DNA of 64,000 nucleotides from Candidatus Hodarchaeota archaeon (GCA_016840035.1 JAEOTC010000075.1:1-64000), one strand, 5' to 3'. Counted from the first letter of the stretch, positions 8,765-40,066 are shown. A program made the numbers and translations. The notes: generated by a model not told the origin, from the letters alone.

Positions 8765-8788
8765 TTAAAGGAGTTTAGAGGGAATTTT

Positions 8789-8796
8789 TATTTAAA
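8789..8796 (-). promoter_or_regulatory. Putative archaeal TATA box
   Basis: TTTAAATA about 25 nt upstream of the start of the structured region. Confidence 0.4.
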
Positions 8797-10359: not shown

Positions 10360-10364
10360 CTGAT

Positions 10365-10384
10365 GGAGAATCATCGGATTCTCC
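10365..10384. terminator. Hairpin between convergent genes
   Basis: GGAGAATC-atcg-GATTCTCC 8-bp stem, followed by a pyrimidine tract on the + strand. Confidence 0.5.
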
Positions 10385-10402
10385 CTCTCCAACTTTTCTT
10401 TT

Positions 10403-11377: not shown

Positions 11378-11392
11378 ATTAATATCATAATA

Positions 11393-12361: not shown

Positions 12362-12370
12362 TCCAAATAA

Positions 12371-14080
12371 TTATTCCCAAAATGATGGATCCGCTTTTGC
12401 TGCTGCACTTTGGTTTAAAATGTTTGTAACAGAACCATCCACCCTCACATCTACAACCGAGACTCCGTCGCTATTAATTGCACGTTTAATCGCAGAAGGT
12501 ACATCTTCTGGACGAGTAACTAGTTCCCCTTGGCCTCCAAGACTTTCAGCAAATTTAACGTAATCAATATGCTTTTTTTCATCTAAGGTGGTTCCAATGC
12601 GTTCTCCCCAAGATAAATCTTGATTATGTGCAATCATTCCCCATAAGGAATCATTTTCAATGATTATTGTCAAAGGTAAGTCATATCGGACTGCTGTATC
12701 GATCTCTGCTCCATTGAATAAGAAAGATCCATCTCCTGAAAGCACGATGATATTCTTATCAGGTTCGGCTAGTTTTCCAGCAATTCCCATTGGTAAACCT
12801 GCACCGAGATGCCCAGTTGGACCATGAGATCCGATTATCTGGCCTGGATACGTTGCTTTCAAAATAATATTTGCCCAAACCGTAGTATCTCCTCCATCTA
12901 GGTATAACCTAGTATTTTCGTCGAGAAATTGTTGAATATCTTTAGTCAGTTTTTGGGGTTTGATTGGTACTTCGCTTGAATCCACTGGTCCACTTATCAT
13001 TTCTTCAAGCTGGTTACGATCTCCTTTTATCGTCTTTGCCCATTCATTATGTAGATTTACCTTAGCTTTTAATTTTATTACTGTGCCTAAGAGTTGTTCC
13101 AAGAAAGGATTTATTGAGCAGGCTATTCCAAGTTCTAGTGGGCGATTCTTTCCTACTGCGGTTGCTTCTGGATCAACATGTACTAATTTTACATCTTCAG
13201 AATAAAATGCTGGATTTGTTCCATACCCCTGGTATTCTCCGAATATGACACCTAAAGCAAGAATAAAATCAGCTTGGTTTAGTAAGATGTTCTGAATTGC
13301 ACTCCCGATAGCCAAAGGATGAAGTTCTGGAATCGATCCTTTACCTAAATCATCATATGCAACTGGGATGGACAAATATTCCGCTAAAGTTAAAAGATTG
13401 GCCGAAGCCGATCCCCAATAGACTCCACTTCCCGCAATTATAACTGGGTTTTTTGCCTCTAATAACTGATCAGCCACTTTCTTTACAAGTAATGGATCAG
13501 GATATCTATATCCCTGAGGACGATATTGTTCTGGATTTAATCCATAGAATGGTTTTGCACGATCAATCTCTGTCTCGAGAGTGAGGATGTCAACTGGAAT
13601 ATCAAGTAAGACTGGCCCCATATTTTCTGCCATGCTTGCTCTAAAAGCTTCTTGCATGTATTCGGGTATCCGATGAGTATCATATACCATTCGTGCATAT
13701 TTTGTCGTCGGTGTAGCCAGTGGTAGATGTTCTACTTCCTGAGCTGCATGTTTATTGAGATCTCTTAAAGCAGTATGTCCTGTAATGGCGATTACAGGAC
13801 TATGAGCATAATAAGCACTAATTAACGCTGGAAGTACATTTGAAAAACCTGGACCAGCAGTTACTAAACAGACTCCGGGAGTTCGAGTTGTTTTAGCCCA
13901 GCCTTCTGCTGCATTTCCAGCAGCTTGTTCATGTCTAGTCGTGATGATAGGTATACCCTCTTCTACCAGTCCTTTATAGATTGGGTTGATATGTCCTCCC
14001 GATAATGTGAAGACATACTGCACATCCTCTAGTTTCAAACTTTTTGCTACGAAAGAGCCACCTGATAACCGTTCTGTCAC
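12371..14080 (-). CDS. ThDP-dependent enzyme, 2-hydroxyacyl-CoA lyase/ILVBL-like (acetolactate synthase superfamily)
   Basis: 'FTLSGGHINPI', 'RHEQAA', 'TAGPG', 'GDGSF...END'. No ALS small subunit adjacent. Confidence 0.8.
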   Translation of the reverse strand: MTERLSGGSFVAKSLKLEDVQYVFTLSGGHINPIYKGLVEEGIPIITTRHEQAAGNAAEGWAKTTRTPGVCLVTAGPGFSNVLPALISAYYAHSPVIAITGHTALRDLNKHAAQEVEHLPLATPTTKYARMVYDTHRIPEYMQEAFRASMAENMGPVLLDIPVDILTLETEIDRAKPFYGLNPEQYRPQGYRYPDPLLVKKVADQLLEAKNPVIIAGSGVYWGSASANLLTLAEYLSIPVAYDDLGKGSIPELHPLAIGSAIQNILLNQADFILALGVIFGEYQGYGTNPAFYSEDVKLVHVDPEATAVGKNRPLELGIACSINPFLEQLLGTVIKLKAKVNLHNEWAKTIKGDRNQLEEMISGPVDSSEVPIKPQKLTKDIQQFLDENTRLYLDGGDTTVWANIILKATYPGQIIGSHGPTGHLGAGLPMGIAGKLAEPDKNIIVLSGDGSFLFNGAEIDTAVRYDLPLTIIIENDSLWGMIAHNQDLSWGERIGTTLDEKKHIDYVKFAESLGGQGELVTRPEDVPSAIKRAINSDGVSVVDVRVDGSVTNILNQSAAAKADPSFWE

Positions 14081-14119
14081 TTTATTCCACCAAGACTATA
14101 CACTAATTCTGCCCAGTTA

Positions 14120-14146
14120 AAGTACTTCAGCAGAGGGAGTACTCCC
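14120..14146. promoter_or_regulatory. Tandem AGTACT-centred palindromes in divergent promoter
   Basis: AAGTACTT (14120-14127) and GGGAGTACTCCC (14135-14146) between the divergent ThDP enzyme and AOR genes. Confidence 0.4.
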
Positions 14147-14195
14147 ATATTTTTGAGAGAGATTTTTATTAATTTCGAATTTCAAATTTTATTCG

Positions 14196-16049
14196 ATGAA
14201 AATGTCCAATGGGTTTTATAATCGACTTGTACGAATCAATCTTTCCACAAATGAAATAAAAAAGGAAAAATTACCGGAAAATGCTGTAGAAAACTTCATG
14301 GGTGGGAAAGGTTTGGGAGCGTTTATTTTAACAAAAGAATTGAAGCCAGGGATTGATCCGTTAGGATCTGAAAATAAGATCATACTATCCACTGGTCCTC
14401 TACAGGGTTCAGTAGTACCGATATGTGGTCGTTACTGTATTGTGACCAAATCACCTCTTACTGGATTATTTTTAGATTCTCATGCCGGAGGATTTATAGG
14501 CCCAGAATTAAAGTTCGCTGGTTATGATGCGATTATTGTTGAAGGTAGAGCGAGTTCTCCTTGCTTTATTTCAATTATTAATGAAGAGGTTAAGATAAAC
14601 AAAGCAGAAAAACTCAAGGGTCTGACAACCTTGGCAAAAGAGATCAAGTTCAAAGAAATTATCAAGGAACCCAAGGCAAAAATTATGTCGATTGGTCCCG
14701 CAGGTGAAAATTTAGTTAAGTACGCTTGTGTTACAAGTGATAGTTTCCGAAATACTGGCCGAGGTGGTGTAGGAGCTGTATTTGGAAGTAAAAATCTTCT
14801 TGGAATAGCAATAAGAGGGAGTAATCGTGATATTTCCGTATTCAATTTAACTGATTTAAAACAAAAGGCATTAGATCTTCGAAAACGAGCATCAAAAGGA
14901 AAAGAAATTGATCATTGGATTTATAGAATTGGAACACCCGCTCTCTTCAATTTATCCTCTGACCGTGATCAGTTACCTGTCCGTAATTTTCAATTTGGGA
15001 CTTTAAACGATGAAGCTTCGACTCTGGGAGAAGATGCCCTTAAAAAATATAGTACCAGGAAGAAACCCTGTTATAAATGTGTAATCCAGTGTGCACATAT
15101 CTTTGGTGGAGATTTATCATTTAAAGATGACGATAAACATATTGCAGCTGTTCCTGAATATGAAACTTTGGGATTAATTGGTTCTAGCTGCGCAGTAAAA
15201 TATGAAACTGTAGTAGAAGCGAACTACCTTTTAAATAAGTATGGACTTGATTCGATTAGTACAGGTAGCACGATTGCATTTTTTATGGAGTGTAGTGAAC
15301 GGGGAATAGTGCCAAAAGAATATCAGTCTGAACAGATAAATTTTGGAGATGATCAAGGACTACTAGATCTAATACCTAAGATTGCATACAGACAAGGTGT
15401 CGGGAAAATCTTAGCTGAAGGAACTAAGAGAGTGTCAGAACTATTTGGTCAAGAATCAGATAAGTTTGCAATACATGTAAAAGGTCTTGAGATGGCAGCT
15501 TGGGATCCTAGAGGACGATTAGCATTGGGATTGAGTTATGCAACAGCAGCCGTGGGAGCTTCGCACCTCCGAGGTTGGCCAACTACAATGAAAATTCCCA
15601 AAGATGAGGATGTTACACCAGAAGTAGTACAAACATTAGTTTCGGAACAAGATCTAAAACTGATTAAAGATAGTCTGATCATATGTCACTTCACTCACTC
15701 CATTATCCCCGCTTTAAATCTTCAAGATGTACAAACACTTTATGAAGCATCTATGGGAGGTTCTCAAAGCATTCGTGATATCGCGCAAAATATTTGGAGT
15801 TTAACCCGATATTTCAATATGCGAGAATTCCAATTACATAATTCTACTGCAGGGGACTTTGATACTTTACCTCATCGTATTCTTCAGGAACCACTACCTT
15901 CTGGAACTGCTGAAGGGTCCAAAGCATTTAATTCTACCAAAGATTTCCAACAAGGTCTGAAGTATTTGTATCAAATGAGACGTTGTGACGAGAACGGTGA
16001 ATTAATAGATTCAGAAGCGGAAAGAATGAAAAATTTTGTTGGAATTTAA
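14196..16049 (+). CDS. aor: Aldehyde:ferredoxin oxidoreductase family (tungstopterin)
   Basis: 'KSPLTG', 'IGPAGENLV', 'GRGGVGAVFGSKNL', CxxCxxxC, 'PEYET', 'DPRG'. Confidence 0.92.
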   Translation: MKMSNGFYNRLVRINLSTNEIKKEKLPENAVENFMGGKGLGAFILTKELKPGIDPLGSENKIILSTGPLQGSVVPICGRYCIVTKSPLTGLFLDSHAGGFIGPELKFAGYDAIIVEGRASSPCFISIINEEVKINKAEKLKGLTTLAKEIKFKEIIKEPKAKIMSIGPAGENLVKYACVTSDSFRNTGRGGVGAVFGSKNLLGIAIRGSNRDISVFNLTDLKQKALDLRKRASKGKEIDHWIYRIGTPALFNLSSDRDQLPVRNFQFGTLNDEASTLGEDALKKYSTRKKPCYKCVIQCAHIFGGDLSFKDDDKHIAAVPEYETLGLIGSSCAVKYETVVEANYLLNKYGLDSISTGSTIAFFMECSERGIVPKEYQSEQINFGDDQGLLDLIPKIAYRQGVGKILAEGTKRVSELFGQESDKFAIHVKGLEMAAWDPRGRLALGLSYATAAVGASHLRGWPTTMKIPKDEDVTPEVVQTLVSEQDLKLIKDSLIICHFTHSIIPALNLQDVQTLYEASMGGSQSIRDIAQNIWSLTRYFNMREFQLHNSTAGDFDTLPHRILQEPLPSGTAEGSKAFNSTKDFQQGLKYLYQMRRCDENGELIDSEAERMKNFVGI

Positions 16050-16051
16050 GA

Positions 16052-18436
16052 TTGATATTCGAACAAACCCAGGTGGACAATACAAAAAGAGATTTTCTTG
16101 ACAAATGTCTACCCTTACTATCAAAAGAGAATGATCAGGATAAAGACACGCTATTCAAGATTATTGCTAATATAATTTTTTTAGTGCTTCTATCTGAGAA
16201 TTTTATTGAAGATAATTTGTTTTTGAATAGAATGAAGGAGAAATCAAACAAATTAAGGATAGAAGTATTAATAGAACATATATTGAGTGCATCTCGAAGC
16301 AAAGAACCATCCCAAGTAATAATTCATGAACTCTTGGAGGAGCTATCAAGGATTGATGATCTTGGGAATGCGGAAATAGATGTTGAAACATTCTTTTCGA
16401 TACTTGATTTAGTCCCTCTTGATTTGAATTCGGGATCTCAGGTCCTTTCACTTGTAGTAGAACATTATTCTGGATCTATAATTGCGAGGAAGAAGCGTGG
16501 TTCATATTACACTCTTCAAGAAGACGCAGAATTGATTTCATTTATTTCTGGTTTTCGATTTCTACAACATGTGACTAAAGGAGATTCTAATGAAGATCTT
16601 TTCAATATGTTAACTTCAAAATCTACGAAACAAGAACAAGTAACACTTTTTGCTGATTTACCTTCTGAGATTTCTATATTGGATCCGAGCTGTGGAACAG
16701 GGTCATTTTTAGTTGAAATTATCCACTTTCTTGCACGCTTAGGATCTAGATTGGCAAATAAAAAGTTGAAAGTTTCAGTTTATGGATATGATCTCAATTC
16801 CGAGGCTTTAATTGGAGCTAAATTCCGAATATTGCTCCTTAAACTTTCACTTATAAAAAAATACGGATTTATGCCAATAGAAATAGAATTTAGATTTTCG
16901 ACCAATGATTTTTTGTTGAATGACATTAATAACAAATTTGATATCATCATCGGAAATCCTCCTTATATACGACATGAAGATATTGGAATGTACCAAGATC
17001 CCGGTTACAAAGAGAGTCTCCAAGAGAAATATTTATCACTCTTAGAACCAAATGTTAAACTAGATCGAAAAAGCGATTATCTGATTTACTTTTGCATTAA
17101 ATGCTTAGACCAGCTAAAATCAAGTGGGGTGTTAGTTTTCCTAACTTCTAACGCATGGTTAGAAGTGAAATATGGCAAAACCTTACAGAATCAATTAATA
17201 TCCTTGTTAAGCAGACAAAAATTAACCAACTGTGAAATCATTCACCAATCACGCTCTAGATTATGGGAACATCTCGGAATTAATTCAGTAATCTTTCTAG
17301 CTGTAAAATCAGAGAAAAAAAGCGTAATTAGGGCAAAAATCTTCTTTACTGAAACCTTCATAGATTTAAGAGAAATTCCTCCATCTTTATTAAAACAAGG
17401 GCTAATTTTTGGGAAAGAATTCTCATCTAAAGAGTATAGAACTGAATTTATTTCTATTGCTGATCTAAAATCTACCCATAAGTGGGCTGGTACGTTTTTA
17501 CGAGCAACTAGGAATGAGCGTCAAGTTTTGCACAAGTTGAAAATACGAGGTAAACCTCTTTCAGATCTAGCAGATGTGCAATTTGGGCTTAAGACAGGGG
17601 CTAATGATTTCTTCCATTTATCAGTAATATTTCAAGATGAGAAATCAAATCTTGTCAAAATTACCAATGCTCTAGGTTATCACGGTGAAATTGAGAACAG
17701 ATTTCTCCTCCCATTGATTAAAAGTCCTCTAGAATGCGAGGGGTTCGAAATACCATCTTCATTCATCCCTAAGGTTTGGTTATTCAACTGTCAAGAACCT
17801 CTGGGTAATATAAAAAGTGAAAACGCTACCAAATATATTCAATGGGGTGCAAATAGTCAAGTATCTGTTAAACAAGGAAAAAAAATGGGAACTAGTATAA
17901 ATGGATTCCATCAGCTTAAAAGCTTAAGTCATAGAGATCCATGGTTTAGTTTACCGAAATGTAAGTCACCCCATCTTCTCTGGACAAAGAGTATTCATGA
18001 TAAACCTGGATGTTTGTTAAATCGTTCGAATTTAATCCCAGATCAACGATTTTATGGAATATCTGTACACGATTCCAAATATATTCCGTTAATATTCGCA
18101 TATCTTAACAGCAGTCTCATTTGGGCGCAGATGGAGCTTTCAGGAAATACGAACATGGGATTTGGAGTATTAGATACTAATGTTTACTGGTTAAAATCTG
18201 TGAGAATTCCAACCAATTTAACAGAAGACCAGGAAGTTTCCTTGTTTAAATTCTGTACTGAATTAAGAAAAGAGACCTCTAGGAAGCCGATTACATCAGA
18301 ATCCCCTCTACGTAGACAAATTGACTCTTTCTTCTGCAATCTTCTTGAAATTTCGGAAAAAGAGTATATTTTGTTAAACCAATTTATCAAAAGAAGCGTA
18401 ATCAACCGGCTTAAAGAAAATACGAAAGGTAATTAA
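16052..18436 (+). CDS. N6-adenine DNA methyltransferase, gamma class (Eco57I/TaqI-like) with C-terminal TRD; no recognisable nuclease domain
   Basis: 'GSYYT', motif I 'LDPSCGTGSF', motif IV 'IGNPPY', 'FLTSNAWL', 'GLKTGANDFF'. Confidence 0.85.
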   Translation: MIFEQTQVDNTKRDFLDKCLPLLSKENDQDKDTLFKIIANIIFLVLLSENFIEDNLFLNRMKEKSNKLRIEVLIEHILSASRSKEPSQVIIHELLEELSRIDDLGNAEIDVETFFSILDLVPLDLNSGSQVLSLVVEHYSGSIIARKKRGSYYTLQEDAELISFISGFRFLQHVTKGDSNEDLFNMLTSKSTKQEQVTLFADLPSEISILDPSCGTGSFLVEIIHFLARLGSRLANKKLKVSVYGYDLNSEALIGAKFRILLLKLSLIKKYGFMPIEIEFRFSTNDFLLNDINNKFDIIIGNPPYIRHEDIGMYQDPGYKESLQEKYLSLLEPNVKLDRKSDYLIYFCIKCLDQLKSSGVLVFLTSNAWLEVKYGKTLQNQLISLLSRQKLTNCEIIHQSRSRLWEHLGINSVIFLAVKSEKKSVIRAKIFFTETFIDLREIPPSLLKQGLIFGKEFSSKEYRTEFISIADLKSTHKWAGTFLRATRNERQVLHKLKIRGKPLSDLADVQFGLKTGANDFFHLSVIFQDEKSNLVKITNALGYHGEIENRFLLPLIKSPLECEGFEIPSSFIPKVWLFNCQEPLGNIKSENATKYIQWGANSQVSVKQGKKMGTSINGFHQLKSLSHRDPWFSLPKCKSPHLLWTKSIHDKPGCLLNRSNLIPDQRFYGISVHDSKYIPLIFAYLNSSLIWAQMELSGNTNMGFGVLDTNVYWLKSVRIPTNLTEDQEVSLFKFCTELRKETSRKPITSESPLRRQIDSFFCNLLEISEKEYILLNQFIKRSVINRLKENTKGN

Positions 18437-28939: not shown

Positions 28940-29452
28940 ATGGTAAAATTCTGTCCTTCTTGTGGTCAAGAAACTGATCCAGACTCACTTTATTGTTTGA
29001 AATGTGGTAAAAAACTTCCCGAATCTGATTTCGCTCCAGCAGATAAAGGCAAGGCCGAACAAAGAGTGCCTCCCCAAGCACCTACCTATCAACCGTCAAG
29101 TTATCAACAAGAATTTCAACCCCGTCCCTACCATCCCTCAATGAAAGCACCCTTAGGTGAGCGTTGTGTCGCTTATTTAGTTGATTATTTTATCAATCAG
29201 TTCACTTGTGGAATCTATGGTTGTGTTAAGGATGGTATCCGTGATGGTCAATCCATAGGAAAAGGATTAATGAACTTGCGTGTTGTTGATTATAATACTG
29301 GTCAACCCGCAACCATTGGCCAATCTTTTCTCCGCAATTGTCTCTGTGGATTTGTGGACGGATGCGTATGTTATTGTCCAATGTTTGTCTCGGAAGATGG
29401 TAGACGAATCGGTGATCATGGAGCTGGCACTATCGTGATCTTGGATAAATAA
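28940..29452 (+). CDS. Zinc-ribbon + RDD family protein
   Basis: CPSC/CLKC, P/Q-rich linker, 'ERCVAYLVD', 'GQSIGK...LRVVD', 'RRIGDHGAGTIV'. Confidence 0.85.
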   Translation: MVKFCPSCGQETDPDSLYCLKCGKKLPESDFAPADKGKAEQRVPPQAPTYQPSSYQQEFQPRPYHPSMKAPLGERCVAYLVDYFINQFTCGIYGCVKDGIRDGQSIGKGLMNLRVVDYNTGQPATIGQSFLRNCLCGFVDGCVCYCPMFVSEDGRRIGDHGAGTIVILDK

Positions 29453-29589
29453 AGGAAGTTTCCTTCTCAAAGGAAAAACCCATGAGATTATTTTACTCCT
29501 TAAGAAAAAGTTTATCACGGAATAAACTGATTCGATCGGTTCACAACACCAAAAAGGATCCTTAAGACTTATAGGATAGGTTGTATTAA

Positions 29590-31152
29590 ATGCGATGTAG
29601 AGAGTGTGGAGCTGAGAATCCACCTGAAGCCCGTTTTTGTTACCAATGTGGGAAAGAGATATCAAGACTGCCTCAAGATGCAAGCAGTTTTCAGTCACAA
29701 TCTGCATTCTGTCAGAAATGCGGCGTTCAAAATCCTCCAAGTTCTAAATTTTGTATGGAATGTGGCACAACCTTAAAGCAAATTGAAGCTAAAAGCCCAA
29801 ATGTTTGTCCTACATGCAATTCTCCAATAGAATCTTCTTATTCTCTATGTCCTAATTGTGGGCATTCACTTGGGGGCATGAGCAAGACTTCTTGGAGTAC
29901 ACCAGATGTAGATGATAGAGAATTAGAGATTTGCCCTTCTTGCGGGAAACAAACAAGTGGTGAATATTGTCAAGACTGTGGGTTTCGTCTGAGGACGCGT
30001 CAGTCTCCCGTCGATTGGTGGTATTGTACTCGTGAATCAGCAATTATGCAGGAAATAGATCCCAAAAGTCAATTTTTAATTCCGAAAGAATCATTAGAAG
30101 AATCTATTGCATCATTTCAACAAGAAGAAAAATTTCCCAATTATCAGAGTGATTCAATTAGACAATTGAGTAATTTAGTATTTTCCCGCGATCACACCAG
30201 CAATTTTTGTTCAATAACGAAAGTAAAATGTCCAATTTGTGGTCAAACATCCTATGCGTCTATTAATGTAAGACCTAAGACCTCTCAGTTGATTGGTTCA
30301 GGGACAAAGAAATTAAACGGAAGTGCTCTAATAAAAAGCGGCATTTTTTACATGCGGAACTTCAAGGAATTTTACTTAATTATCGCAGTAGGAGTTATGA
30401 TCGATTTAATTGTGACAATATTAGGAGGAAATTTATCTACCGTTGATGCTCTTACGAATTTCTTCTCTGATTTTGATACGGCTGCATTAAATGAGAGTCT
30501 CTATACCATGAATATAGGTACATTAGCTATAGACTTCGTATTGTCATCCTTTTTGCTAAGTTGGACCCTTATTTCGCTAAAGCAAATTAAAAATCAAGGG
30601 TATTCCTCAATTGATCTGATTTCAGGTGCTGGAACTTCAGTTCGAACTATTGTGAGTGTATTGATATTAATGCTTGTTCCTTTTATGGTATCGATAATTT
30701 CTCTCATTGGTTTGGGTTCTATAAATCTCTCTTATACCGATTCGTTATATGGCTATTCAGAATATCCCTACTCCGGCACAGATTCAGTAATAGGTTCGTT
30801 ATTAGGAATATTGGCTTTTACTCTTGGAATTGCGCTTCTCGAGATTGTGGTGATGATATTAACAACATATTTTCTTCCTGCTTTCATTTTCAATCCTGAT
30901 CGGTCAATCAAAAATAGTATAGAGCGAGGATATGTGTTTGCGAGAAAATATTTCTGGTTAACTTTGGGAATAACTATACTATTCAATTTGATAGGCAATA
31001 TTGGCTCATTTTTTACTTTACCATCATACTTTTTAGGGACAGCACTAATTCCAGTTCTCATTACTTCGATCATTATACGAACGATAGCAGTGTATCGAAT
31101 TCTGTCTTTCGGTTGGGCATATGACGAATTTAAAGATGAAGTGCATAAATGA
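29590..31152 (+). CDS. Multi double-zinc-ribbon protein with C-terminal membrane domain (about 5-6 TM)
   Basis: At least 9 CxxC motifs in the N-terminal half; membrane domain with 'SIKNSIERGYVF'. Confidence 0.8.
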   Translation: MRCRECGAENPPEARFCYQCGKEISRLPQDASSFQSQSAFCQKCGVQNPPSSKFCMECGTTLKQIEAKSPNVCPTCNSPIESSYSLCPNCGHSLGGMSKTSWSTPDVDDRELEICPSCGKQTSGEYCQDCGFRLRTRQSPVDWWYCTRESAIMQEIDPKSQFLIPKESLEESIASFQQEEKFPNYQSDSIRQLSNLVFSRDHTSNFCSITKVKCPICGQTSYASINVRPKTSQLIGSGTKKLNGSALIKSGIFYMRNFKEFYLIIAVGVMIDLIVTILGGNLSTVDALTNFFSDFDTAALNESLYTMNIGTLAIDFVLSSFLLSWTLISLKQIKNQGYSSIDLISGAGTSVRTIVSVLILMLVPFMVSIISLIGLGSINLSYTDSLYGYSEYPYSGTDSVIGSLLGILAFTLGIALLEIVVMILTTYFLPAFIFNPDRSIKNSIERGYVFARKYFWLTLGITILFNLIGNIGSFFTLPSYFLGTALIPVLITSIIIRTIAVYRILSFGWAYDEFKDEVHK

Positions 31153-32870
31153 GATCAAAATTTTTTCGAAAATCCCTTCTTCGAGGTTTGTCAATAACTT
31201 GTTTCCTTCTACTAATTATTTTACTCCTTTTATCCAGAAATTCAGGACAATCTAGTCTTCTATTTTGGCAAATTACCCAATTTTGTGGCCCTCTCTTATT
31301 TTTGGGTATATGGTTCCCTTTTGCCTTATCATTTCTACTAGATTCATCAGTAGAGATGAGATCGCTTTCTCGATCCGCAACGGTGATGATTTTTGGAAGT
31401 ATCATTATAGTATTAGGAGCCTTGATGCTGAATACCCGAATGTTATTCATTATTATGGGATCGATCTCAAATTTGTTTGAGATCAGAGTCGATGATCTTG
31501 TAGGTCAATTTTTTCTTTGGGAAATGACTACTGGCCTATTATTACCCCTAAATGAAGAAATAATTAAGATTTTACCAATTTTAGTACTTTCTCATGCAGC
31601 TGTAGTATCATTTGACCCTGAGGATGAAAAAATCGTGGTGAGGACACCTCAAATAAAACAAATCCTAATCTCACGAAGACAATATGTTCTATACGCTATT
31701 ATTAGTGGAACTGTTTTTACTTTCTTTGAATTATTTTTATATCAATGGGAGTCGATTCAACCTAGTCTAGATCCTTTTTCAGATGTCTACTTCCAAATTA
31801 CCTTACGAACACTTGCACCTTTACATATCCTCTCAACAATTTTCTTTGCACTCGGAATATATACTTTGAATGGTCGACTCACGGGAACAATTTCAAAAAG
31901 AATGGCAATACTTTCGTCAATTAAGTATTTTCTTCTTGGCTGGGGTCTTCATTCATTCTGGAATTCATTGAACGTATATTTTGCAGTATTCCTTCCAGAG
32001 ATGCAGGATTTATTGTATCTATTACTTTTCGGAATCGGAATCATCATCAATATTTCATTAATTCTGATAATCTGGCGGATTTTTCGAATAACCCCACGAT
32101 TCTGTGTTAAGTGCGGATTTGAAGGGATAAACCACTTTCATCCAGAAAAAGTTATTACATCTGAGAACGTAGCCCCCTCTCGCGGATTCAGTTTTCTTCC
32201 TCCTAGAATCAGCAGATTCAGGCTCGCTTCTAGATATATCTGTCCCAATTGCTTTAATAAAATCCGTACAGAGGGAACATGTGCGCATTGTGGTTCACGA
32301 ATTTATCAAACCTGTCCAAACTGTAACACTTTCCTATCAGAAACAACAACAATCTGCCCTAATTGTCGTAAACGGATAATCTCCCTCGATGAGATGAGTT
32401 TTCGTTCACTCTCGATGGTTGAAACATGGATAATCGGAGTAAGTGTGCTAACTTCCTTAGTTTTTACTCTCACTCCTCTTTCTATACTCTTTTGGTTACG
32501 TCAAGAAGCTATCTTGATTCCGTTGCCAATATATCTTTTTTACTTCATAATGGGGTTAATTATTGTCATAAGCACACTTATCACATTGTTTTTTAATCGG
32601 ACTATGGGAATATTAGTATTGTACTGCCATATCCTTAATCTGTTTTTACTGGGAATAATCAGTCTTTTCGGCTCATCATTTATTGGAATATTACTTTCGA
32701 TACGTCTAACTGATCCTATTGGAGGAATCCTAATTCTTGGAATAAGTATTATTCTGTATTCCTTATTTAAACGGATTTTCAACCTTTTTTATCATAGCTA
32801 TCACCCAATTTTTCCTGAATTTTTGGATTCTGTAAGCGAAACAGTGAAAGGAGGTAGGGGTTATGAGTAA
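31149..32870 (+). CDS. PrsW-family glutamic intramembrane protease fused to zinc ribbons and an extra TM domain
   Basis: 'EEIIK', 'FTFFE', 'PLH' and 'LHSFWN' motifs; five CxxC motifs after the protease domain. Confidence 0.8.
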   Translation: MRSKFFRKSLLRGLSITCFLLLIILLLLSRNSGQSSLLFWQITQFCGPLLFLGIWFPFALSFLLDSSVEMRSLSRSATVMIFGSIIIVLGALMLNTRMLFIIMGSISNLFEIRVDDLVGQFFLWEMTTGLLLPLNEEIIKILPILVLSHAAVVSFDPEDEKIVVRTPQIKQILISRRQYVLYAIISGTVFTFFELFLYQWESIQPSLDPFSDVYFQITLRTLAPLHILSTIFFALGIYTLNGRLTGTISKRMAILSSIKYFLLGWGLHSFWNSLNVYFAVFLPEMQDLLYLLLFGIGIIINISLILIIWRIFRITPRFCVKCGFEGINHFHPEKVITSENVAPSRGFSFLPPRISRFRLASRYICPNCFNKIRTEGTCAHCGSRIYQTCPNCNTFLSETTTICPNCRKRIISLDEMSFRSLSMVETWIIGVSVLTSLVFTLTPLSILFWLRQEAILIPLPIYLFYFIMGLIIVISTLITLFFNRTMGILVLYCHILNLFLLGIISLFGSSFIGILLSIRLTDPIGGILILGISIILYSLFKRIFNLFYHSYHPIFPEFLDSVSETVKGGRGYE

Positions 32871-33672
32871 TTTACTATTTAGAAAAAAATCTAAGCCTAG
32901 AAGCGCTAATCCTCATGCGGGATTAAAAGCGGGTTTTCTTCTCCTATCTATTGGATTTTTCCTTCAGTTTTTGTTCCTCAACTTATTATCACTCATCTTA
33001 GGGATAGGAACCGAGTTTGCAGAAATGACAATCCTAATTAGCGGATTACCCGAACTTGATATTGTACTTCCGTTTTTAGTCCTTATTCTACTTCCCATGA
33101 CTGCTATTACTACAAATTTATGGGTTACATTACTTTCAGTCATTCCTTGGATAATTGCAGGATGTATTACTGGATACTTTTGTGGGCCCGATCTTGAAAA
33201 AGCAATATTCCTAAGTTTTCCTTCATTTTTTGGATCGATAGCAGTTTTGATTATTCTAGCGCTTTTTACTTTATTTGGCGTTCTTCTTCCAGTTTTCCCT
33301 TCCCTTCAGATAGTTTTCTTGTTTGCAACAATACTCACACTAGCCATGTACGGAATGGTACTGATAGGAGGAATCAGTCTATATTTCTTTCTACCATCCT
33401 ATATTGGTTATTATATTGGAAAAAAATATACTCCTCAATTATATCCTCAAATATTTTATGCTCAACCAAATAGAATTGATCCTAGGAGCGTATATTGTAG
33501 ATTCTTAACTCGTGATAATAGGTGTGGAGTTGGTCGAAGTTCTTTTATTCCAGGTACGTGTGATAATCGATTTAACCAAGTAACGTGTCCTATATATGTA
33601 CGGGTAACCAAAGCAACACGAAAGAAAATTCAACCAGGAGGTCTTTTTTCTGAAATTAAGAAGTCTCTTTAA
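32863..33672 (+). CDS. Membrane protein with Cys-rich C-terminal tail
   Basis: About 5 TMs, then 'YCRF...RC...TC...TCPIY'. Confidence 0.7.
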   Translation: MSNLLFRKKSKPRSANPHAGLKAGFLLLSIGFFLQFLFLNLLSLILGIGTEFAEMTILISGLPELDIVLPFLVLILLPMTAITTNLWVTLLSVIPWIIAGCITGYFCGPDLEKAIFLSFPSFFGSIAVLIILALFTLFGVLLPVFPSLQIVFLFATILTLAMYGMVLIGGISLYFFLPSYIGYYIGKKYTPQLYPQIFYAQPNRIDPRSVYCRFLTRDNRCGVGRSSFIPGTCDNRFNQVTCPIYVRVTKATRKKIQPGGLFSEIKKSL

Positions 33673-34405
33673 AAATAGGTATACCCTGATAATTCTGATA
33701 TTGAGTGCTAGTATATGGGTTATTGTGGATGGTGGAACACATAACTCACCATATCGAAAACAAGGAATATACAGTGATGTTCCTTTAGTTAAGGATTCTG
33801 ATAGATCTGGGTTTAACCTTTGGGATTTATTGGATTTCCTTGATTTTACATTACCTGAGTTACCTATGCCTCAAATTGCGCCCCTTCTTGGGTTATCAGC
33901 AGGCGGATTGATGTTTTTATTCGTGATATTGTTAATTATGGTTGTTTTATTCGGAATATCACTCATAATTTCATCAAAATTCAGATCAAAGAGTAAAGAA
34001 GAAATTTTTGTCGAGGAAGAAGATCAACCTGATATTAAAGAGTTGATAAAGCGTCGAGAAACTCTCGGAAAGCGTATTGATGAAATTATCACATTCTTGG
34101 AGACTTCAGGAAATAAAGAGTCTTTCAGTGAGGCAATAACTTTAGGATTCGAAAAATTGGATTTAGCGTTAAAAGAATTTTCAAAGATATCTCGCCCAGG
34201 ATGGTTAACTCCACGTGAATATGCTGAAATGCGGATTCCATACTTCGATCATAAATCTCTATCCGTAGCTGTTGAGATCTTCTACGAAATAACGTATGGT
34301 GAACGAACTGCGACTTTAAGAGAGTTTAATTTGTTTTTATCAAGTATCAAATCGATGATAAGTGATCAAACAATACTTCGTTGGAAATCTGATCAAGACT
34401 TATGA
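33650..34405 (+). CDS. DUF4129-like membrane protein (probable CTG start)
   Basis: 'SRPGWLTPREYA...FYEITYG' DUF4129 pattern. GGAGGT lies 7 nt before an in-frame CTG at 33650. Confidence 0.7.
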   Translation: MKLRSLFKNRYTLIILILSASIWVIVDGGTHNSPYRKQGIYSDVPLVKDSDRSGFNLWDLLDFLDFTLPELPMPQIAPLLGLSAGGLMFLFVILLIMVVLFGISLIISSKFRSKSKEEIFVEEEDQPDIKELIKRRETLGKRIDEIITFLETSGNKESFSEAITLGFEKLDLALKEFSKISRPGWLTPREYAEMRIPYFDHKSLSVAVEIFYEITYGERTATLREFNLFLSSIKSMISDQTILRWKSDQDL

Positions 34406-35661
34406 TTAAGGAGTTACATGACATGAATATACACATGAGAAAGTATCTGTATGTTTTTAGTGTCCTGATAGGTCTTCTTCTTATTCTGATCCCTCCACTT
34501 CAACCTGCTGCATATACAATTTCTAATACTCATTGGTCTGGAGCTTCAAGTTTTCAGTCCTCTTTCGAAGGAAACCATAAAATTACCTCTACAAATATTC
34601 CTCTAAGTTTACTAGGTGATCTAAATCAGCTCACTGACATTATCATCATAATTGGAGGAAGCTTACCTTATTATCCTGAAGAATCACAAAAACTCCTAAC
34701 TTTCGTTTCAAATGGAGGAATTCTCATCCTTTTTGAAGATACAGGATATGGTCGAATTTTAACAGAGGCATTTGGATTGAGATTAGGTGGAACCCTTATT
34801 GACCAAGATAATCATGGGCCTAATCCATATTTACCCAAATCTGTGCAACCTGAACTTCAAATCCAAAATACAGTAATAAATCAACATAATGTGATTTTCA
34901 ATCATGGAGTAAGAGTTAAGCAATTTTACCGCCTTCCAAATACACTTTATCGTCCGCTGTTCCCGCTTGAAGGGTTCGTTTGGGAAGACAAAGATGGGGA
35001 TGGAAAATTTCATGAGGAAGAAGAGAGAGTTACAGATGATGCTTATCTAGGAGGAATCCTTGAATTTCCAAATACTAATGGATTATGCATTGTGATAGGT
35101 GATTCCGCCTTTCCCACTAATGATATGATCTCACGAGAGCAGAATCGTGAATGGCTCTTGGAACTTGTACGTCTGATCACTCAAAATGACAATAAAAATG
35201 TTCTTTTTGATGAGAGTCGAAAGTTATGGATTCCACCATCTGGGATCGCATTGATCTCTTACGTTTCAATCATAATTTTAGGGATATTTCATTCTCCGTT
35301 AATTGCTTTCACTGCTTTGATTATTTTAGTAGGAATACTAGCAATTAGGAAAAATCGGGAGATAATGGAATTCACACACCGTTTAAAAGAGCCATTTGAT
35401 AGAAAGGCAAGAATTCCAACGCAAGCCTATCTACAATCAGCGGAGGAGGAAGTTTTCAGTAGCTACGGTAAGAAATCTTCAAGATCCAACCTTTATCGAG
35501 ATTTAATAGTTGAAGAATTACTGGAAATAGAAGAAAGGCTTACACATGAGGAAAAGAGGTATTTTGAGGATTCATTACGCCAACGGATATTCACTTTTGC
35601 TGATTATGAGAAACACAAATATCAAATTGAACAATTTAAGAAAAACCTAAATGAGGAGTAA
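34402..35661 (+). CDS. DUF4350-like membrane-anchored protein
   Basis: 'SNTHWSGASSF', 'FVSNGGILILFED', 'IGDSAFPTNDMI', 'VLFDES'; EF-hand-like DKDGDGK. Confidence 0.75.
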   Translation: MIKELHDMNIHMRKYLYVFSVLIGLLLILIPPLQPAAYTISNTHWSGASSFQSSFEGNHKITSTNIPLSLLGDLNQLTDIIIIIGGSLPYYPEESQKLLTFVSNGGILILFEDTGYGRILTEAFGLRLGGTLIDQDNHGPNPYLPKSVQPELQIQNTVINQHNVIFNHGVRVKQFYRLPNTLYRPLFPLEGFVWEDKDGDGKFHEEEERVTDDAYLGGILEFPNTNGLCIVIGDSAFPTNDMISREQNREWLLELVRLITQNDNKNVLFDESRKLWIPPSGIALISYVSIIILGIFHSPLIAFTALIILVGILAIRKNREIMEFTHRLKEPFDRKARIPTQAYLQSAEEEVFSSYGKKSSRSNLYRDLIVEELLEIEERLTHEEKRYFEDSLRQRIFTFADYEKHKYQIEQFKKNLNEE

Positions 35662-35665
35662 AATA

Positions 35666-36607
35666 ATGGATGCTTTAGAGATAAAGACAATTGTCGAACA
35701 GATCATAGAAGAAATGCAGAATCGAGTTGTAGGATTGGATTTTGCGATCGAAAATGTTTTAACAAGTTATTTTGCCAATGGGCATGTCCTACTAGAGGGG
35801 GTTCCAGGTATTGCGAAGTCTATGATGGCATTTTCTCTTGCAGAGGTATTAGGACTTGATTTTACCCGTATTCAATTCACACCTGATTTGATGCCTGGTG
35901 ATATCACAGGCGTATCTGTATATAATATGAAAACTCAGGAGTTTAATTTCATCAAAGGACCCGTTTTTTCTAACATTGTCCTTTGTGACGAAATTAGTCG
36001 TGCCCCTCCAAAAACTCATTCAGCTCTTTTAGAGGCAATGCAAGAAAGACAAATTAGCCATGAAGGTATTACCTATAAGCTTCCAGAACCTTTTCTGGTA
36101 ATTGCTACACAAAACCCTATAGAACAGGCCGGTGTATACCCACTACCAGAAGCTCAGCTCGATCGATTCCTTATTCGACAAATTATACCCTATCCCTCTG
36201 TTGAGGCTGAATTAAAAATTCTCAAGCTGAAACAACGGCAAGATATGCTACCTGTAAATGTTCTGACAGATAGAACGACTATACTAAAGATTCAGCAATT
36301 CGTTCGTGAAGAAGTACTTGTATCCGAGAAAATTATGGAGTATATCGTTAATCTGATAAGAAAGACTCGAGAACATTACGGTCTAACTCTAGGTGGTTCT
36401 CCACGTGCATCTATATCTTTACTTACGATAGCTCAATCTAGAGCTGCGATTTCTGGTAGAGATTATGTTGAACCGGATGATATCAAACGTTTATTCTTCC
36501 CTGTTGTCAATCATCGGTTGATTTTAACCCCCGAATCAGAAATGGAACGAGTTCCAGTAATACAAATCGTTGATAATATTTTAAAGAATACAGAAGTGGT
36601 ATTGTAA
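35666..36607 (+). CDS. moxR: MoxR family AAA+ ATPase
   Basis: 'GHVLLEGVPGIAKS', 'RIQFTPDLMPGDITG', 'DEISRAPPK', 'ATQNPIE', 'PLPEAQLDRF', 'GSPRAS'. Confidence 0.95.
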   Translation: MDALEIKTIVEQIIEEMQNRVVGLDFAIENVLTSYFANGHVLLEGVPGIAKSMMAFSLAEVLGLDFTRIQFTPDLMPGDITGVSVYNMKTQEFNFIKGPVFSNIVLCDEISRAPPKTHSALLEAMQERQISHEGITYKLPEPFLVIATQNPIEQAGVYPLPEAQLDRFLIRQIIPYPSVEAELKILKLKQRQDMLPVNVLTDRTTILKIQQFVREEVLVSEKIMEYIVNLIRKTREHYGLTLGGSPRASISLLTIAQSRAAISGRDYVEPDDIKRLFFPVVNHRLILTPESEMERVPVIQIVDNILKNTEVVL

Positions 36608-36626
36608 AAGTAGAGGTCTATAGATT

Positions 36627-37979
36627 TTGAAACGCTATCGTGAAATTTCGCCAAGTGGAATTTTGGTTCTACTCCTAAGTTCTTTTGGGGGGATAATTGG
36701 GATGAACTTAAATTTCCCAATTCTCTGGTTCCCAAGTTTTGTTTTTATTTTCTATTTTCTTCCATTCATCACATATTTCTATAGAGAATGGAACATATCA
36801 GCTCGACACTATGTTTCTTCATCAATTGTGACTCTTGGTGACTTCTTTTACTTGAAAATAATACTGAAGAATGTCAATCGGAGAAAAATTCGGTTTATTC
36901 TTGACATGAAGAATACCGATCACATTATCCTTGTAAAGGGCTGGTCATTCAAAAAAATGACTTTATTTCCTGGAGAGTCAAACTCTTGTTCCTTTATATT
37001 TGCCGTATCCAAACGAGGAATTCATAAGATCCAATCCTTCTCAGTAATTAGGAGTGATCCGTTAGGATTATATCGTGATGTAATTGAGTTTTCAGAACCA
37101 ATATCAATTCAAGTAATTCCCGCTAGACCCCAGATTAGACTTGATAAAAAACAAAAGCAAGAAGTTCGTCATACATTAGTTGGTCAATACGCATATAGAA
37201 GAAAAGGACAGGGTGATGAATTCTTCTCCTTAAATGATTATCAACGTGGAGATGAACCACGTAAGATTTACTGGAAGAAAAGTGCTCATCTTGGGAAATT
37301 AATATCTAAAGAGTTTGAGGATGAAATTGTATTTCGACTCTTTGTTGCTGTGGATACCAGTTACACGATGCGATCAAGGAAATTAGAATATTCTCTTACA
37401 AGTCTATTGGAACTAGCCGAAATGTGTTCCTATACTCATGATACTTTCGGATTCATTACCTTTGCAGATCATCCAAACCGTTATCTCAAACCAACTACTA
37501 GTCCACGTCTATACGAAAAGGTTTCAAGATTAATTTATGATTTAAATTCACATGACGAACCTGCGCGATTTGATACAATATTACCGTATATTTTTTCCTT
37601 GAAAGGAACCAGAAGTGTATTAGTTATACTTAGTGATTCAGAAGGGGTATTAGAAGACAAATTAAAAGCAATAGTAAAGTTAAGCAAGTTTGGACATCAT
37701 CTAATATTCTGCGAATTACGTGCAGACAAATTTGGTATTTCTGATTCTAAGATCAACCCTTATAATCTCGATACATATGAAAAATTAACAAATTTACAAT
37801 TGATTCATGATAAAGTTTCTGAAAACTATCGTATAAGAGAAGCTCGAATCCGTCAATTATTAGAAGAAGTGAGAGGGACATATATTCAGATAGGATCCTA
37901 TTCAGACAATCTGATGCTTCTAATAAAACATGAGATTGCTCAAATTCAACCATTGTTATCTCCTGTGATGTTAAAATGA
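36627..37979 (+). CDS. DUF58 / VWA-like MoxR partner
   Basis: 'DPLGL', 'GDEFFSLNDYQRGDEPRKIYWKKSA', MIDAS-like 'DTSYTM', 'ILSD'. Confidence 0.88.
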   Translation: MKRYREISPSGILVLLLSSFGGIIGMNLNFPILWFPSFVFIFYFLPFITYFYREWNISARHYVSSSIVTLGDFFYLKIILKNVNRRKIRFILDMKNTDHIILVKGWSFKKMTLFPGESNSCSFIFAVSKRGIHKIQSFSVIRSDPLGLYRDVIEFSEPISIQVIPARPQIRLDKKQKQEVRHTLVGQYAYRRKGQGDEFFSLNDYQRGDEPRKIYWKKSAHLGKLISKEFEDEIVFRLFVAVDTSYTMRSRKLEYSLTSLLELAEMCSYTHDTFGFITFADHPNRYLKPTTSPRLYEKVSRLIYDLNSHDEPARFDTILPYIFSLKGTRSVLVILSDSEGVLEDKLKAIVKLSKFGHHLIFCELRADKFGISDSKINPYNLDTYEKLTNLQLIHDKVSENYRIREARIRQLLEEVRGTYIQIGSYSDNLMLLIKHEIAQIQPLLSPVMLK

Positions 37980-38677
37980 GTAAAAATTTTAAATTTTTAG
38001 ATACGGGATTATCAGGATACTGGGTGAAACGTCAGAATCCAAAATTGGTTGATCAGGTTCTTAAACTTGATTATATATTGACTACCTTAATCATTGGTTT
38101 ACTTGGATTTTATATATTAACTAATTTATCATTACTTACCTTTTCGTTATTATTAATAGCAATAACTAGTTTATTTTTCTTGGAATTGAATTTAAGTAAA
38201 TATCCGCAGTATGTTATTCCATTTTCTCATCTAACTCTGATCCTCCTGATCGCATATTTGCAGCTAATCGTGTCAGAAACAAGCGTTTATTCTTTATATC
38301 CATCAATCTTAGATCTATTCCTTAGTTTATTTGTAAGCATCAAATTATTTCTTCAACTGTTTCATTTTCGAAGATATTTATCTGATTCTAAAGCTCTAAT
38401 CCCGAAAACAGAAATAAATAGACGGCACTTAAAATCATTTATGGATCAATTAAGAATTGGAGAACCACTACTGGATTATGAGTTTGAAGAACCGACTAGA
38501 TCAGAATTAACTGATTTTCTTCTGCAAATTTTACGCGTGATAGTATTTATGGTTTTAATGTTATCCCCACTTGGTCTTTTCCTGTTCTCAGGAGTACTTA
38601 TCTATCCATATGTTGCCTTGGTACCAAGTGTCTTGATTTCATTATTTCTGCTAGTTATTCACACCCAACGAGAATAG
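37976..38677 (+). CDS. Hypothetical membrane protein (about 6 TM)
   Basis: ATGA overlap with the DUF58 gene; hydrophobic. Confidence 0.7.
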   Translation: MSKNFKFLDTGLSGYWVKRQNPKLVDQVLKLDYILTTLIIGLLGFYILTNLSLLTFSLLLIAITSLFFLELNLSKYPQYVIPFSHLTLILLIAYLQLIVSETSVYSLYPSILDLFLSLFVSIKLFLQLFHFRRYLSDSKALIPKTEINRRHLKSFMDQLRIGEPLLDYEFEEPTRSELTDFLLQILRVIVFMVLMLSPLGLFLFSGVLIYPYVALVPSVLISLFLLVIHTQRE

Positions 38678-38698
38678 TTTTGAGATATTAGCGACTGA

Positions 38699-40066
38699 TC
38701 AAGAAAATTGAGGGAGATATTTCTTGTGAGTAGTCAGATAATCATCTAACATTTGTTCAGCAAGGGATAGATCTGGAAGCATTAATGCAAATGCCTGAAG
38801 AGCGGCCTCTCGGTCTCCCTCAATGGAGCTTTTGGTTATTAACTTCGCAATAGAAATCTCTCGCTGACAAAGAGCAGCAATAGCTTCAGGGAGTGGACCT
38901 ACTTTCATTCCTGAAATCCCATAAGCGTTTACAAGCGCTGGAACTTCAACAATTGCATCATCTGGAAGGTTTGAGATTGTTCCATTGTTCAATAGATTGA
39001 CAGATTGTTCATAGGAGTTTGAATTAGAGATCATTTCACCTATTATAGCATCCGCTCTTTCAGCGGGATTAGGATGGATATCTAAGGCTCTCTTGCCAGT
39101 AATAATGTCGTTAATTCGTGTCCACATGGTTTCTCTCTGTAATTTCCCGCGATCAAAATCGTAAAGCTGGATACGATATTTTTCCCAATTCTCCTTGGTA
39201 AATGTATAAGGAAGATACTCGACAAGATGGCAATCCCCAACAATGGGTAATAATCCGAAGATATCAAACATATGCTTAGTTAATGGCTCAAATTCTGGAT
39301 TTACATTCTTCGCTTCTTGTCGTACTAATGGATAAACGTCTTCATTTGTATCGAGTCTCCTAACATCCAGCATCCAAGTAAAATGGTTCAGACCTGCTGC
39401 TTTGATATCATATTCTCCAGCTGCTTCAACAACAAACTCATTGAAGATACTCTGGCTTTCATCTGTCCATTTGTACTCAAGGTCCAAATTGTCAGTAATT
39501 CCCAAATCATTTGCTAAATATCTTCCTACGATACCATAGCCATGCCAAATTTGGTGACAAAGCCCAACAGACTTAATTTTGGCATGTTCAGCTGCATAAC
39601 CAATTCTGGGGACTGGGTTTGTGAAATTAACCAGCCAACTATCAGGAGCAAGATCGTGGATGTCGTACAAGATAGGCATAATAATTGCTAAGCCACGTGC
39701 GGTATGACCGAAACTACCCATAAGGCCATTCTCTGCATAATGGTAATAACCATATTTCTTCGCAATTTGATAATCCTTCAGCCAGGTTTCTTCACGATCT
39801 ATCGCAACAGATAATATGACAAAGTCAGCATCAATTAAAGCCTCTTTACGGTCGAGAAAGGAACTGATTTTAATTTTAGAATCCCATTCTTTTTTCATAA
39901 CTTCCCCTAGGGCATAGATTGCACTTAAATTTTCTTTATTAATGTCTACTAACTTCAATGTTGTGTTTTGTAAATCTTCGTGGGCAATAATACCACTCAA
40001 ATTATCTAAACCAAAACTTGCACTACCAGCGCCTATTATTACAATATTTGCGTCTGAATCCATCAA
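38699..40066 (-). CDS. Glycoside hydrolase family 4 (NAD+/Mn2+-dependent alpha-galactosidase/glucosidase)
   Basis: 'IIGAGSASF', 'NFTNP', 'GLCH', 'GLNHFTW', 'VEVP'. Confidence 0.9.
   Translation of the reverse strand: MMDSDANIVIIGAGSASFGLDNLSGIIAHEDLQNTTLKLVDINKENLSAIYALGEVMKKEWDSKIKISSFLDRKEALIDADFVILSVAIDREETWLKDYQIAKKYGYYHYAENGLMGSFGHTARGLAIIMPILYDIHDLAPDSWLVNFTNPVPRIGYAAEHAKIKSVGLCHQIWHGYGIVGRYLANDLGITDNLDLEYKWTDESQSIFNEFVVEAAGEYDIKAAGLNHFTWMLDVRRLDTNEDVYPLVRQEAKNVNPEFEPLTKHMFDIFGLLPIVGDCHLVEYLPYTFTKENWEKYRIQLYDFDRGKLQRETMWTRINDIITGKRALDIHPNPAERADAIIGEMISNSNSYEQSVNLLNNGTISNLPDDAIVEVPALVNAYGISGMKVGPLPEAIAALCQREISIAKLITKSSIEGDREAALQAFALMLPDLSLAEQMLDDYLTTHKKYLPQFS

Follow-up and report, generated by a model that had tools for sequence, protein, structure and literature searches.

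A conserved operon in a class of Asgard archaea links a PrsW-type intramembrane protease gene to a MoxR/DUF58 cassette

In RavA-ViaA, CbbQ-CbbO and NorQ-NorD, an AAA+ ring works with a von Willebrand factor A (VWA) partner of the metal-ion-dependent adhesion site (MIDAS) type and is encoded beside its client, and the characterised MoxR-VWA pairs carry out MIDAS-mediated remodelling or maturation of that neighbouring client. DUF4129 is usually the C-terminal domain of the membrane transglutaminases found in MoxR-DUF58-transglutaminase triads. The PrsW protease of Bacillus subtilis is the site-1 protease of the anti-sigma-W factor RsiW, and we know of no sigma or anti-sigma factors in archaea. 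Here we describe a locus of a Candidatus Hodarchaeota archaeon (positions 28940-38677 of GCA_016840035.1 JAEOTC010000075.1:1-64000) in which a gene for a PrsW-type protease with cytoplasmic zinc ribbons stands ahead of a cassette for DUF4129, DUF4350, MoxR and DUF58 proteins. The whole 64,000-nt stretch that was analysed is referred to as the window, and the nine open reading frames (ORFs) of the locus are labelled g1 to g9 (Table 1).

Makarova, Galperin and Koonin predicted in 2015, by comparative genomics, that the arCOG01314 (DUF4350)-MoxR-vWA module is a secretion or membrane-remodelling complex (PMC5898192). Like g6-g8, that complex combines an anchored DUF4350 protein carrying an extracellular flavodoxin/GldG-like domain with a COG0714 MoxR, a vWA protein and further small membrane proteins in one predicted operon, and g6 shows the same layout of N-terminal anchor, large outside domain and C-terminal transmembrane (TM) segment. 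The arCOG01314 neighbourhoods carry Ig-like or S-layer-type proteins, whereas no such domain was found in the nine products or the flanks of our locus. Moreover, PrsW has no mention in that report, and the window operon adds a PrsW-zinc ribbon protein, a Cys4-tailed protein, DUF4129 and a protein with six TM helices. A first-pass annotation of the locus had called its machine undescribed. The DUF4129-DUF4350-MoxR-DUF58 cassette is the known part, the DUF4350-MoxR-vWA module having been predicted in 2015; the PrsW-MoxR link is new relative to the literature searched, in which we found no paper with both PrsW and MoxR or with both PrsW and Asgard, and no report of the four-gene cassette having been tested.

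Two further systems resemble the cassette. As described in an excerpt of PMC8191103, the mycobacterial Rv3689-Rv3695-type cluster is a co-regulated block of a TM protein, DUF4350, MoxR, DUF58, SpoIIM and RDD, and it shares with the window DUF4350, MoxR and DUF58 alongside polytopic membrane proteins. It differs in that g4 and g9 have no SpoIIM match, the RDD-like g1 is not a conserved neighbour, and PrsW does not appear in what that excerpt lists for mycobacteria. MoxR-DUF58-transglutaminase triads (e.g., the Bifidobacterium PFNA operon) and the mycobacterial ripA-ripB-moxR1-DUF58-vWA operon place MoxR-DUF58 pairs beside peptidase-fold enzymes (transglutaminase, NlpC/P60), with VWA proteins as MoxR co-chaperones (PMC12067865, which also cites RavA/ViaA). 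The window likewise has a MoxR-proper and a DUF58 gene beside an enzyme of this kind, but the enzyme here belongs to the glutamate/histidine intramembrane proteases of PrsW/CPBP type, with a fold unrelated to papain-like transglutaminase or NlpC/P60, and DUF4129 is a separate protein.

Linkage of PrsW to the MoxR module

The locus is a real and conserved operon, with a core of seven genes (g3-g9) across the class and, in the genus only, g2 as an eighth gene. The first-pass annotation had described nine co-directional, mostly overlapping genes in an Asgard lineage; the host is indeed Asgard, with same-genus genomes belonging to Candidatus Hodarchaeota or Heimdallarchaeota, and all nine ORFs were confirmed on the + strand. 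From 29590 onward, five of the seven junctions between g2 and g9 overlap (by 4, 8, 4, 11 and 4 nt), and the other two are gaps of 28 and 19 nt. The proposed unit of nine genes did not stand, since g1, 137 nt ahead of g2, is not kept beside the cluster.

For a class-wide survey, 251 genomes were sampled from the phylum; PF13367 matched in 69 of them, and 60 PrsW regions were annotated by iterating profile searches that started from the window proteins. PrsW occurs in a long form (~490-630 amino acids, aa) and a short form (245-434 aa). In the class of the window genome, module genes lie directly downstream of the long form in 41 of 43 loci, which fall into five families, and the remaining two contigs end within 800 base pairs. 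Long forms from other Asgard classes have the same PrsW, zinc ribbon and TM architecture, with the module in none of the eight loci that leave room for it; nor does the module accompany the short-form PrsW of Asgard genomes (none of 11 loci with enough room). The expectation that the PrsW and zinc-ribbon genes would be linked to the MoxR module elsewhere was therefore borne out for PrsW, at every adequately long locus of five families, and for g2 within the genus only, and it failed for g1, which is unlinked. One family (f7; locus L066, 5692-13942) has the permuted order g3-g7-g8-g9-g4-g5-g6 and keeps all seven genes.

A short DUF4350-like ORF was seen in three genomes of one genus from another Asgard class (L041 10600-11361, L045 8650-9534, L044 17-328), convergent with, and ~3 kb downstream of, a module-less long-form PrsW. 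It encodes 253-294 aa where complete (the L044 copy is cut by the contig end), and may be a remnant, an alternative partner or profile drift.

Of the 21 genomes examined from the genus of the window genome, 10 gave a homologue of g3 (39-46% identity), and g2-g9 are collinear in every long-enough locus (tblastn, blastp). The g6 orthologues occur in the same genomes as g3, plus one (G016) in which an assembly spacer cuts the cluster. The cluster is present in 11 genomes, and g3 and g6 were both not found in the 10 others (71-94% complete), in a sample that is incomplete and made up of mutually related genomes. This all-or-none pattern of g3 and g6, with the two lost together, fits one functional unit.

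The cassette also recurs in the same genome behind other genes. On contig C28 (L103 = 74000-93999; ORFs 4795-16881, - strand), a gene for a 1712-aa Ig-like surface protein is followed by DUF4129 (166 aa), DUF4350 (570 aa), MoxR, DUF58, and 453-aa and 177-aa proteins without family; the core order is that of the window and the head gene is another. A third set, on contig C114 (L104, 9257-12995), has the arrangement MoxR-DUF4129-x-DUF58. Judged by gene content and order, the DUF4129-DUF4350-MoxR-DUF58 cassette has the look of an engine that can be reused behind different head genes, the head in the window being PrsW and g4; the presence of the same cassette behind a different head on C28 argues for a generic engine with a variable client.

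Contig C270 of the same assembly (G000; L099, 1-4809) carries a second, partial copy of g6-g7-g8-g9 (80, 95, 87 and 77% protein identity to the window genes) that is cut by the contig end, which points either to a related strain that was co-binned or to a paralogous cluster of recent origin.

Protease head and four-gene cassette

Table 1. Features of the locus at 28940-38677 and their positions in the window.
Feature	Position	Strand	Description
g1	28940..29452	+	170 aa, 12 Cys, zinc ribbon and truncated RDD-like; adjacent gene, not a conserved component
TATA-like element GTTTATCA	29511..29518	+	tentative; ~75 nt upstream of the g2 start
g2	29590..31152	+	520 aa; multi-zinc-ribbon membrane protein; genus-specific first operon gene
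g3	31149..32870	+	573-aa PrsW-type intramembrane protease with double zinc ribbon
g4	32863..33672	+	269-aa polytopic membrane protein, basic cytoplasmic tail with C212, C221, C233, C242
g5	33701..34405	+	234-aa membrane-anchored protein, cytoplasmic DUF4129 domain
g6	34402..35661	+	419-aa DUF4350 protein
g7	35651..36607	+	318-aa MoxR-proper AAA+ ATPase, cytoplasmic
g8	36627..37979	+	450-aa DUF58 protein with VWA-like domain
g9	37976..38677	+	233 aa, ~six TM helices, last operon gene

Pfam backs the domains first assigned to g2, g3, g6, g7 and g8, and that of g1 with only a partial RDD match; the DUF4129 call for g5 falls below the threshold in the window (17.1 against a cut-off of 24.8) and is reached in three of seven orthologues. 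By a hydropathy and charge scan, the zinc ribbons, the Cys4 tail of g4, DUF4129, MoxR and the DUF58 body are all predicted to be cytoplasmic, and the sole large extracytoplasmic domain of the operon is the 234-aa DUF4350 domain of g6. The first-pass annotation had counted eight of the nine products as membrane-associated, of which probably seven are clear cases and one, g1, is doubtful; its placing of Cys-rich modules in the first four products was right (12 and 20 Cys in g1 and g2, 10 in a loop of g3 and four in the tail of g4). Among the eight families compared with hhalign, the only internal homology is the ribbon common to g2 and g3.

The PrsW domain of g3 (PF13367, residues 79-279) scores 35.4 bits against a cut-off of 23.5 and passed the cut-off in the genome search too, and DZR is matched as well. 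A PrsW part of ~8 TM helices is followed by a cytoplasmic C319-x2-C322..H329 site, the double ribbon (C365/368/378/381 and C389/392/403/406) and about four further TM helices; the cytoplasmic loop 317-420 holds 10 Cys in 104 residues. The PrsW motifs EExxK/R, FxxxE, H and HxxxN/D are all present, with E136, E137, K140, F190, E194, H226, H268 and N272 invariant in nine orthologues and at least 90% conserved in 53. The ribbon cysteines are likewise invariant or at least 90% conserved in these two sets, C378 and C381 only in the set of nine. Compared with B. subtilis PrsW, g3 belongs to the same Pfam family with all four catalytic motifs intact, but has over twice its length and carries, in addition, cytoplasmic zinc ribbons and four TM helices. 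A homologue search with g3 returned only Hodarchaeales relatives, and the PrsW profile gave no match to Rce1 or APH-1 in the PDB.

A RING-like reading of the g3 zinc module (window 32240-32400, residues ~339-415) was considered for its weak PDB matches to the RING domains of NSE1, MDM4 and RING1B (E 6e-4 to 0.1). It was rejected on a C4-to-C5 spacing of 7 residues rather than 2-3, and Pfam and hhalign both call a double zinc ribbon. The double ribbon also has a weak sequence match to the PolD DP2 zinc finger.

Upstream of g3 in the genus, g2 has a ~256-residue cytoplasmic N-terminus with 20 Cys, followed in the hydropathy profile by about six TM helices. Its ribbons comprise four complete CxxC..CxxC units and the conserved C146/C214/C217, and three or more are matched by Pfam (DZR 1.8e-17, Zn_Ribbon_1). 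The ribbon at 38-98 is homologous to g3 362-414 (hhalign 97.8%), and the two genes meet in an ATGA overlap of the kind that gives translational coupling. The membrane domain of g2 occurs only in cluster-bearing genomes of the genus, where it adjoins g3, save for one stand-alone extra in G008.

In 39 loci the slot that separates g3 from g5 is occupied by an ORF. Across families these g4 proteins share only 14-23% identity with the window protein, and P63 and the four tail Cys are at least 90% conserved in 28 sequences; the tail is a basic stretch of 91 residues. The window protein has no Pfam family, and 8 of 28 family members weakly match DUF5518. A word-based homologue search returned eight close relatives and no longer fused forms, and a HMMER search of 1.84 billion representatives returned 54 clusters, none of them named, which marks a small family. 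The AlphaFold2 model of g4 (predicted local distance difference test, pLDDT, 76.6) gave no informative fold against the PDB (Foldseek E of at least 5, best VIA Z 5.8), and PDB sequence searches with the g4 profile and with g5, g6 and g8 returned nothing meaningful. In family f6 (L077, 7425-8138) the g4-slot protein, of 237 aa, lacks the four-Cys tail that is conserved everywhere else.

The last gene of the operon, g9, has orthologues after DUF58 in 30 loci and no Pfam family. Its AlphaFold2 model (pLDDT 72.3) retrieved generic four-helix bundles only (Z ~12), which is within noise for helical bundles and was set aside. In the ESM Atlas, g4 and g9 gave only weak, unnamed clusters (0.75-0.80). 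SpoIIM (PF01944) was not found in g4, g9 or their 28 and 26 family members at E up to 0.05, a search that still leaves room for remote homology.

Within the cassette, R165, T170, P171, E173, F194, Y195 and Y199 of the g5 DUF4129 domain are invariant or nearly so in 38 sequences. The DUF4350 protein g6 (41.7 against a Pfam cut-off of 30.4) has hydrophobic segments at 12-40, a signal anchor, and at 275-318, with the GldG/GIFT-like extracytoplasmic domain between them and a charged cytoplasmic C-terminal tail of 100 aa; its orthologues also match ABC_transp_aux and IFT52_GIFT. Three acidic positions of g6 are invariant in 36 of 36 orthologues: E271 (35212-35214), just outside the membrane, and E348-E349 (35443-35448), in the cytoplasmic tail. 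E348-E349 of g6 and D154 or E173 of g5 are candidate handles for the VWA domain, and E271 of g6 is also a candidate VWA/MIDAS contact.

The ATPase g7 matches AAA_3 (2.6e-62) and AAA_lid_2 (7.5e-20), and its Walker A (G50-x2-G53-x-K56), Walker B (D113, E114), N155, R172 and R252 are conserved in 36 orthologues. An adjacent DUF58 gene is the mark of MoxR-proper according to Snider and Houry, as quoted in PMC12067865, and g8 lies 19 nt downstream of g7. Because g7 is 53-59% identical to the PrsW-linked MoxRs of other families and 43-46% identical to the paralogues of its own genome, the PrsW-linked MoxRs are, judging from identity, an old orthologous group distinct from the other MoxRs of the genome. 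Given the conserved motifs, both the g3 protease and the g7 ATPase should be active.

The DUF58 protein g8 (36.5 bits against a cut-off of 23.4; VWA_2 weak) consists of an N-terminal TM hairpin and a 399-residue cytoplasmic body. It has a MIDAS-like D243-x-S245-x-T247 ... S336-D337, to be compared with the complete motif DxSxS ... T ... D, and D243, M248, K252, S336 and D337 are conserved class-wide. Compared with RavA-ViaA, CbbQ-CbbO and NorQ-NorD, the g7-g8 pair is membrane-tethered through DUF58 and sits in a seven-gene membrane set, with a putative client and a partly degenerate MIDAS.

A putative membrane complex and its alternatives

We tentatively favour the explanation that g3-g9, together with g2 in the genus, encode one membrane complex in which a MoxR/VWA engine controls or assembles the PrsW head, and we regard this as nearly, if not quite, an even proposition. 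The engine would be the four-gene cassette, made of a MoxR ring (g7), a membrane-tethered DUF58/VWA adaptor (g8), DUF4350 (g6) and DUF4129 (g5); the head, specific to this paralogue, would be an active PrsW with cytoplasmic zinc ribbons (g3) and the Cys4-tailed g4. By analogy with other MoxR-VWA pairs, which act on a neighbouring client, the pair would spend ATP on assembling the PrsW/g4 head, loading it with metal or switching it. The DUF4350 ectodomain would sense the state of the envelope, and this state would then gate proteolysis of a membrane or surface substrate. The zinc ribbons of g3 and g2, which have one homologous double ribbon in common, may serve as cytoplasmic docking or output domains, and in Hodarchaeales g2 may be a substrate or a partner. 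The tight packing of the genes, with overlapping stop and start codons, supports one complex, as do the linkage across the class, the permuted f7 order that spares all seven genes, the joint presence or absence of g3 and g6, and the conserved PrsW and MoxR motifs. Our data show which genes are present, that their linkage and catalytic residues are conserved, how the products are predicted to lie in the membrane and that g3 and g6 go missing together; the physical complex, the direction of control and the substrate are what we infer.

The linkage gives this explanation a practical side. The cassette is widespread in bacteria and archaea, and across a whole Asgard class it is fixed here to an enzyme with a readable activity, PrsW with intact catalytic residues. 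The PrsW linkage thereby offers a concrete cleavage assay of the effect that the MoxR/DUF58 engine has on its client, and the system could show the role of PrsW-type proteases in organisms without sigma factors.

Several observations weigh against an engine-controlled head. Other Asgard classes have long-form PrsW with zinc ribbons and no MoxR module, and the protease can therefore do without the engine; no cluster was detected in about half of the genus, so that it is dispensable. The MIDAS residue S245 of g8 is G in 16 of 30 orthologues, which leaves metal-mediated client binding uncertain and, as the serine is not conserved class-wide, weakens the step that relies on VWA handles. In addition, neither fold nor family could be recognised for g4 or g9, and both the substrate of the protease and the contacts among the subunits are putative.

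A surface-assembly or secretion machine, following the 2015 interpretation of Makarova and colleagues, is a possible though rather unlikely alternative. The cassette would build or anchor a surface structure, and PrsW would mature exported or surface proteins in the manner of CPBP/CAAX-type proteases, with no signalling switch. This agrees with the secretion or membrane-remodelling role predicted for the DUF4350-MoxR-vWA module (PMC5898192), with the giant Ig-like surface protein that heads the paralogous cassette on C28, and with the resemblance of DUF4350 orthologues to GldG/ABC_transp_aux and GIFT domains. However, the window operon has no secreted, Ig-like or S-layer-type protein, all of its domains save the DUF4350 ectodomain are membrane-embedded or cytoplasmic, and the many cytoplasmic zinc and Cys modules would be left unexplained.

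The first-pass annotation had itself proposed membrane quality control, in which damaged or orphan membrane proteins would be cut by PrsW and the resulting fragments extracted by MoxR, with the zinc ribbons as its recruiting adaptors, as in rhomboid/p97 systems. A conserved protease and AAA+ ATPase in one operon and cytoplasmic zinc modules that could serve as adaptors speak for this proposal, which we nevertheless consider improbable. MoxR is not a Cdc48/p97-type ATPase, MoxR-type AAA+ proteins are to our knowledge not known to thread or extract substrates, and a VWA adaptor, the MoxR co-chaperone of PMC12067865's account, acts on a specific client. Furthermore, the same engine is paired with non-protease heads in this genome, and dispensability in half of the genus would be odd for general quality control. 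Pfam shows no rhomboid or Cdc48 homology, and the parallel with endoplasmic-reticulum-associated degradation in eukaryotes is without homology support.

Regulated intramembrane proteolysis with effector release appears equally doubtful. Here PrsW would cut g2 (in Hodarchaeales), g4 or its own C-terminal half and free a cytoplasmic zinc effector for transcription or another target, by analogy with PrsW cutting the zinc-binding RsiW. The architecture of g2, with cytoplasmic zinc domains ahead of TM helices, is that of a membrane-tethered regulator, and its ATGA coupling to g3, the double ribbon shared with g3 and its occurrence only with the cluster all point the same way. Set against this, the rest of the cluster occurs throughout the class, whereas g2 was found in a single genus; no domain that would bind DNA or polymerase was recognised, and the operon has no site-2 protease.

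A bolder form of control, with a low probability in our view, would be a new type of archaeal switch in which the MoxR/VWA engine, informed by a surface DUF4350 sensor, gates PrsW, which in turn frees zinc-ribbon signalling effectors. If true, intramembrane proteolysis gated by ATP would have its first example in this switch, in the archaeal class that stands closest to eukaryotes.

That the genes are merely co-transcribed or syntenic by descent, and not one machine, is very improbable: all loci do come from one class of related genomes and hence are not independent, but the gene set survives block rearrangement (f7), its genes are present or missing together, and it is still intact where most members have diverged to 23-45% protein identity, far beyond the usual span of neutral synteny.

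Upstream genes and surroundings

The tentative TATA-like element GTTTATCA of the window (29511-29518) has a counterpart in three of four other genus members, where a TTTAAATA box lies at the same distance of ~75 nt ahead of g2 and aligns with it. All four have a divergent acetyltransferase gene before g2, and from the aligned box and this gene order g2 is probably the first gene of the transcript. Genome G010 has a tandem duplication of g2 ahead of PrsW (L019, 5578-8977; 518 and 537 aa), and the stand-alone membrane-domain copy of G008 lies on another contig of that genome (C28:121269-122135).

The neighbouring genes are metabolic and unrelated to the cluster: upstream lies a thiolase/DUF35 set, and downstream a GH4 hydrolase gene in convergent orientation. 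A search of 28000-39500 against Rfam returned no RNA family, and the PADLOC anti-phage defence models gave no match to the nine proteins.

The RDD match of g1 (2.2e-9) covers only profile positions 68-120 of 137, Zn_Ribbon_1 is matched too, and the hydropathy profile has no strong hydrophobic segment. Orthologues of g1, at 56-64% identity, are separated from the cluster by 26-30 kb in G003, G008, G010 and G012, and also occur in four cluster-less genomes (G007, G011, G020, G021); it is because of this distribution that we do not count g1 as a component of the operon. It stands beside the cluster in the window genome only, and a metagenome scan for its neighbours gave only a zinc-ribbon match. 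Finally, g1 belongs to a small paralogous family (G000 contigs C260, C177 and C53) whose members are short, rich in Cys, without clear TM helices and matched by the RDD profile over its C-terminal half only; several copies occur per genome in the genus, and the C260 paralogue is 69% identical to g1.

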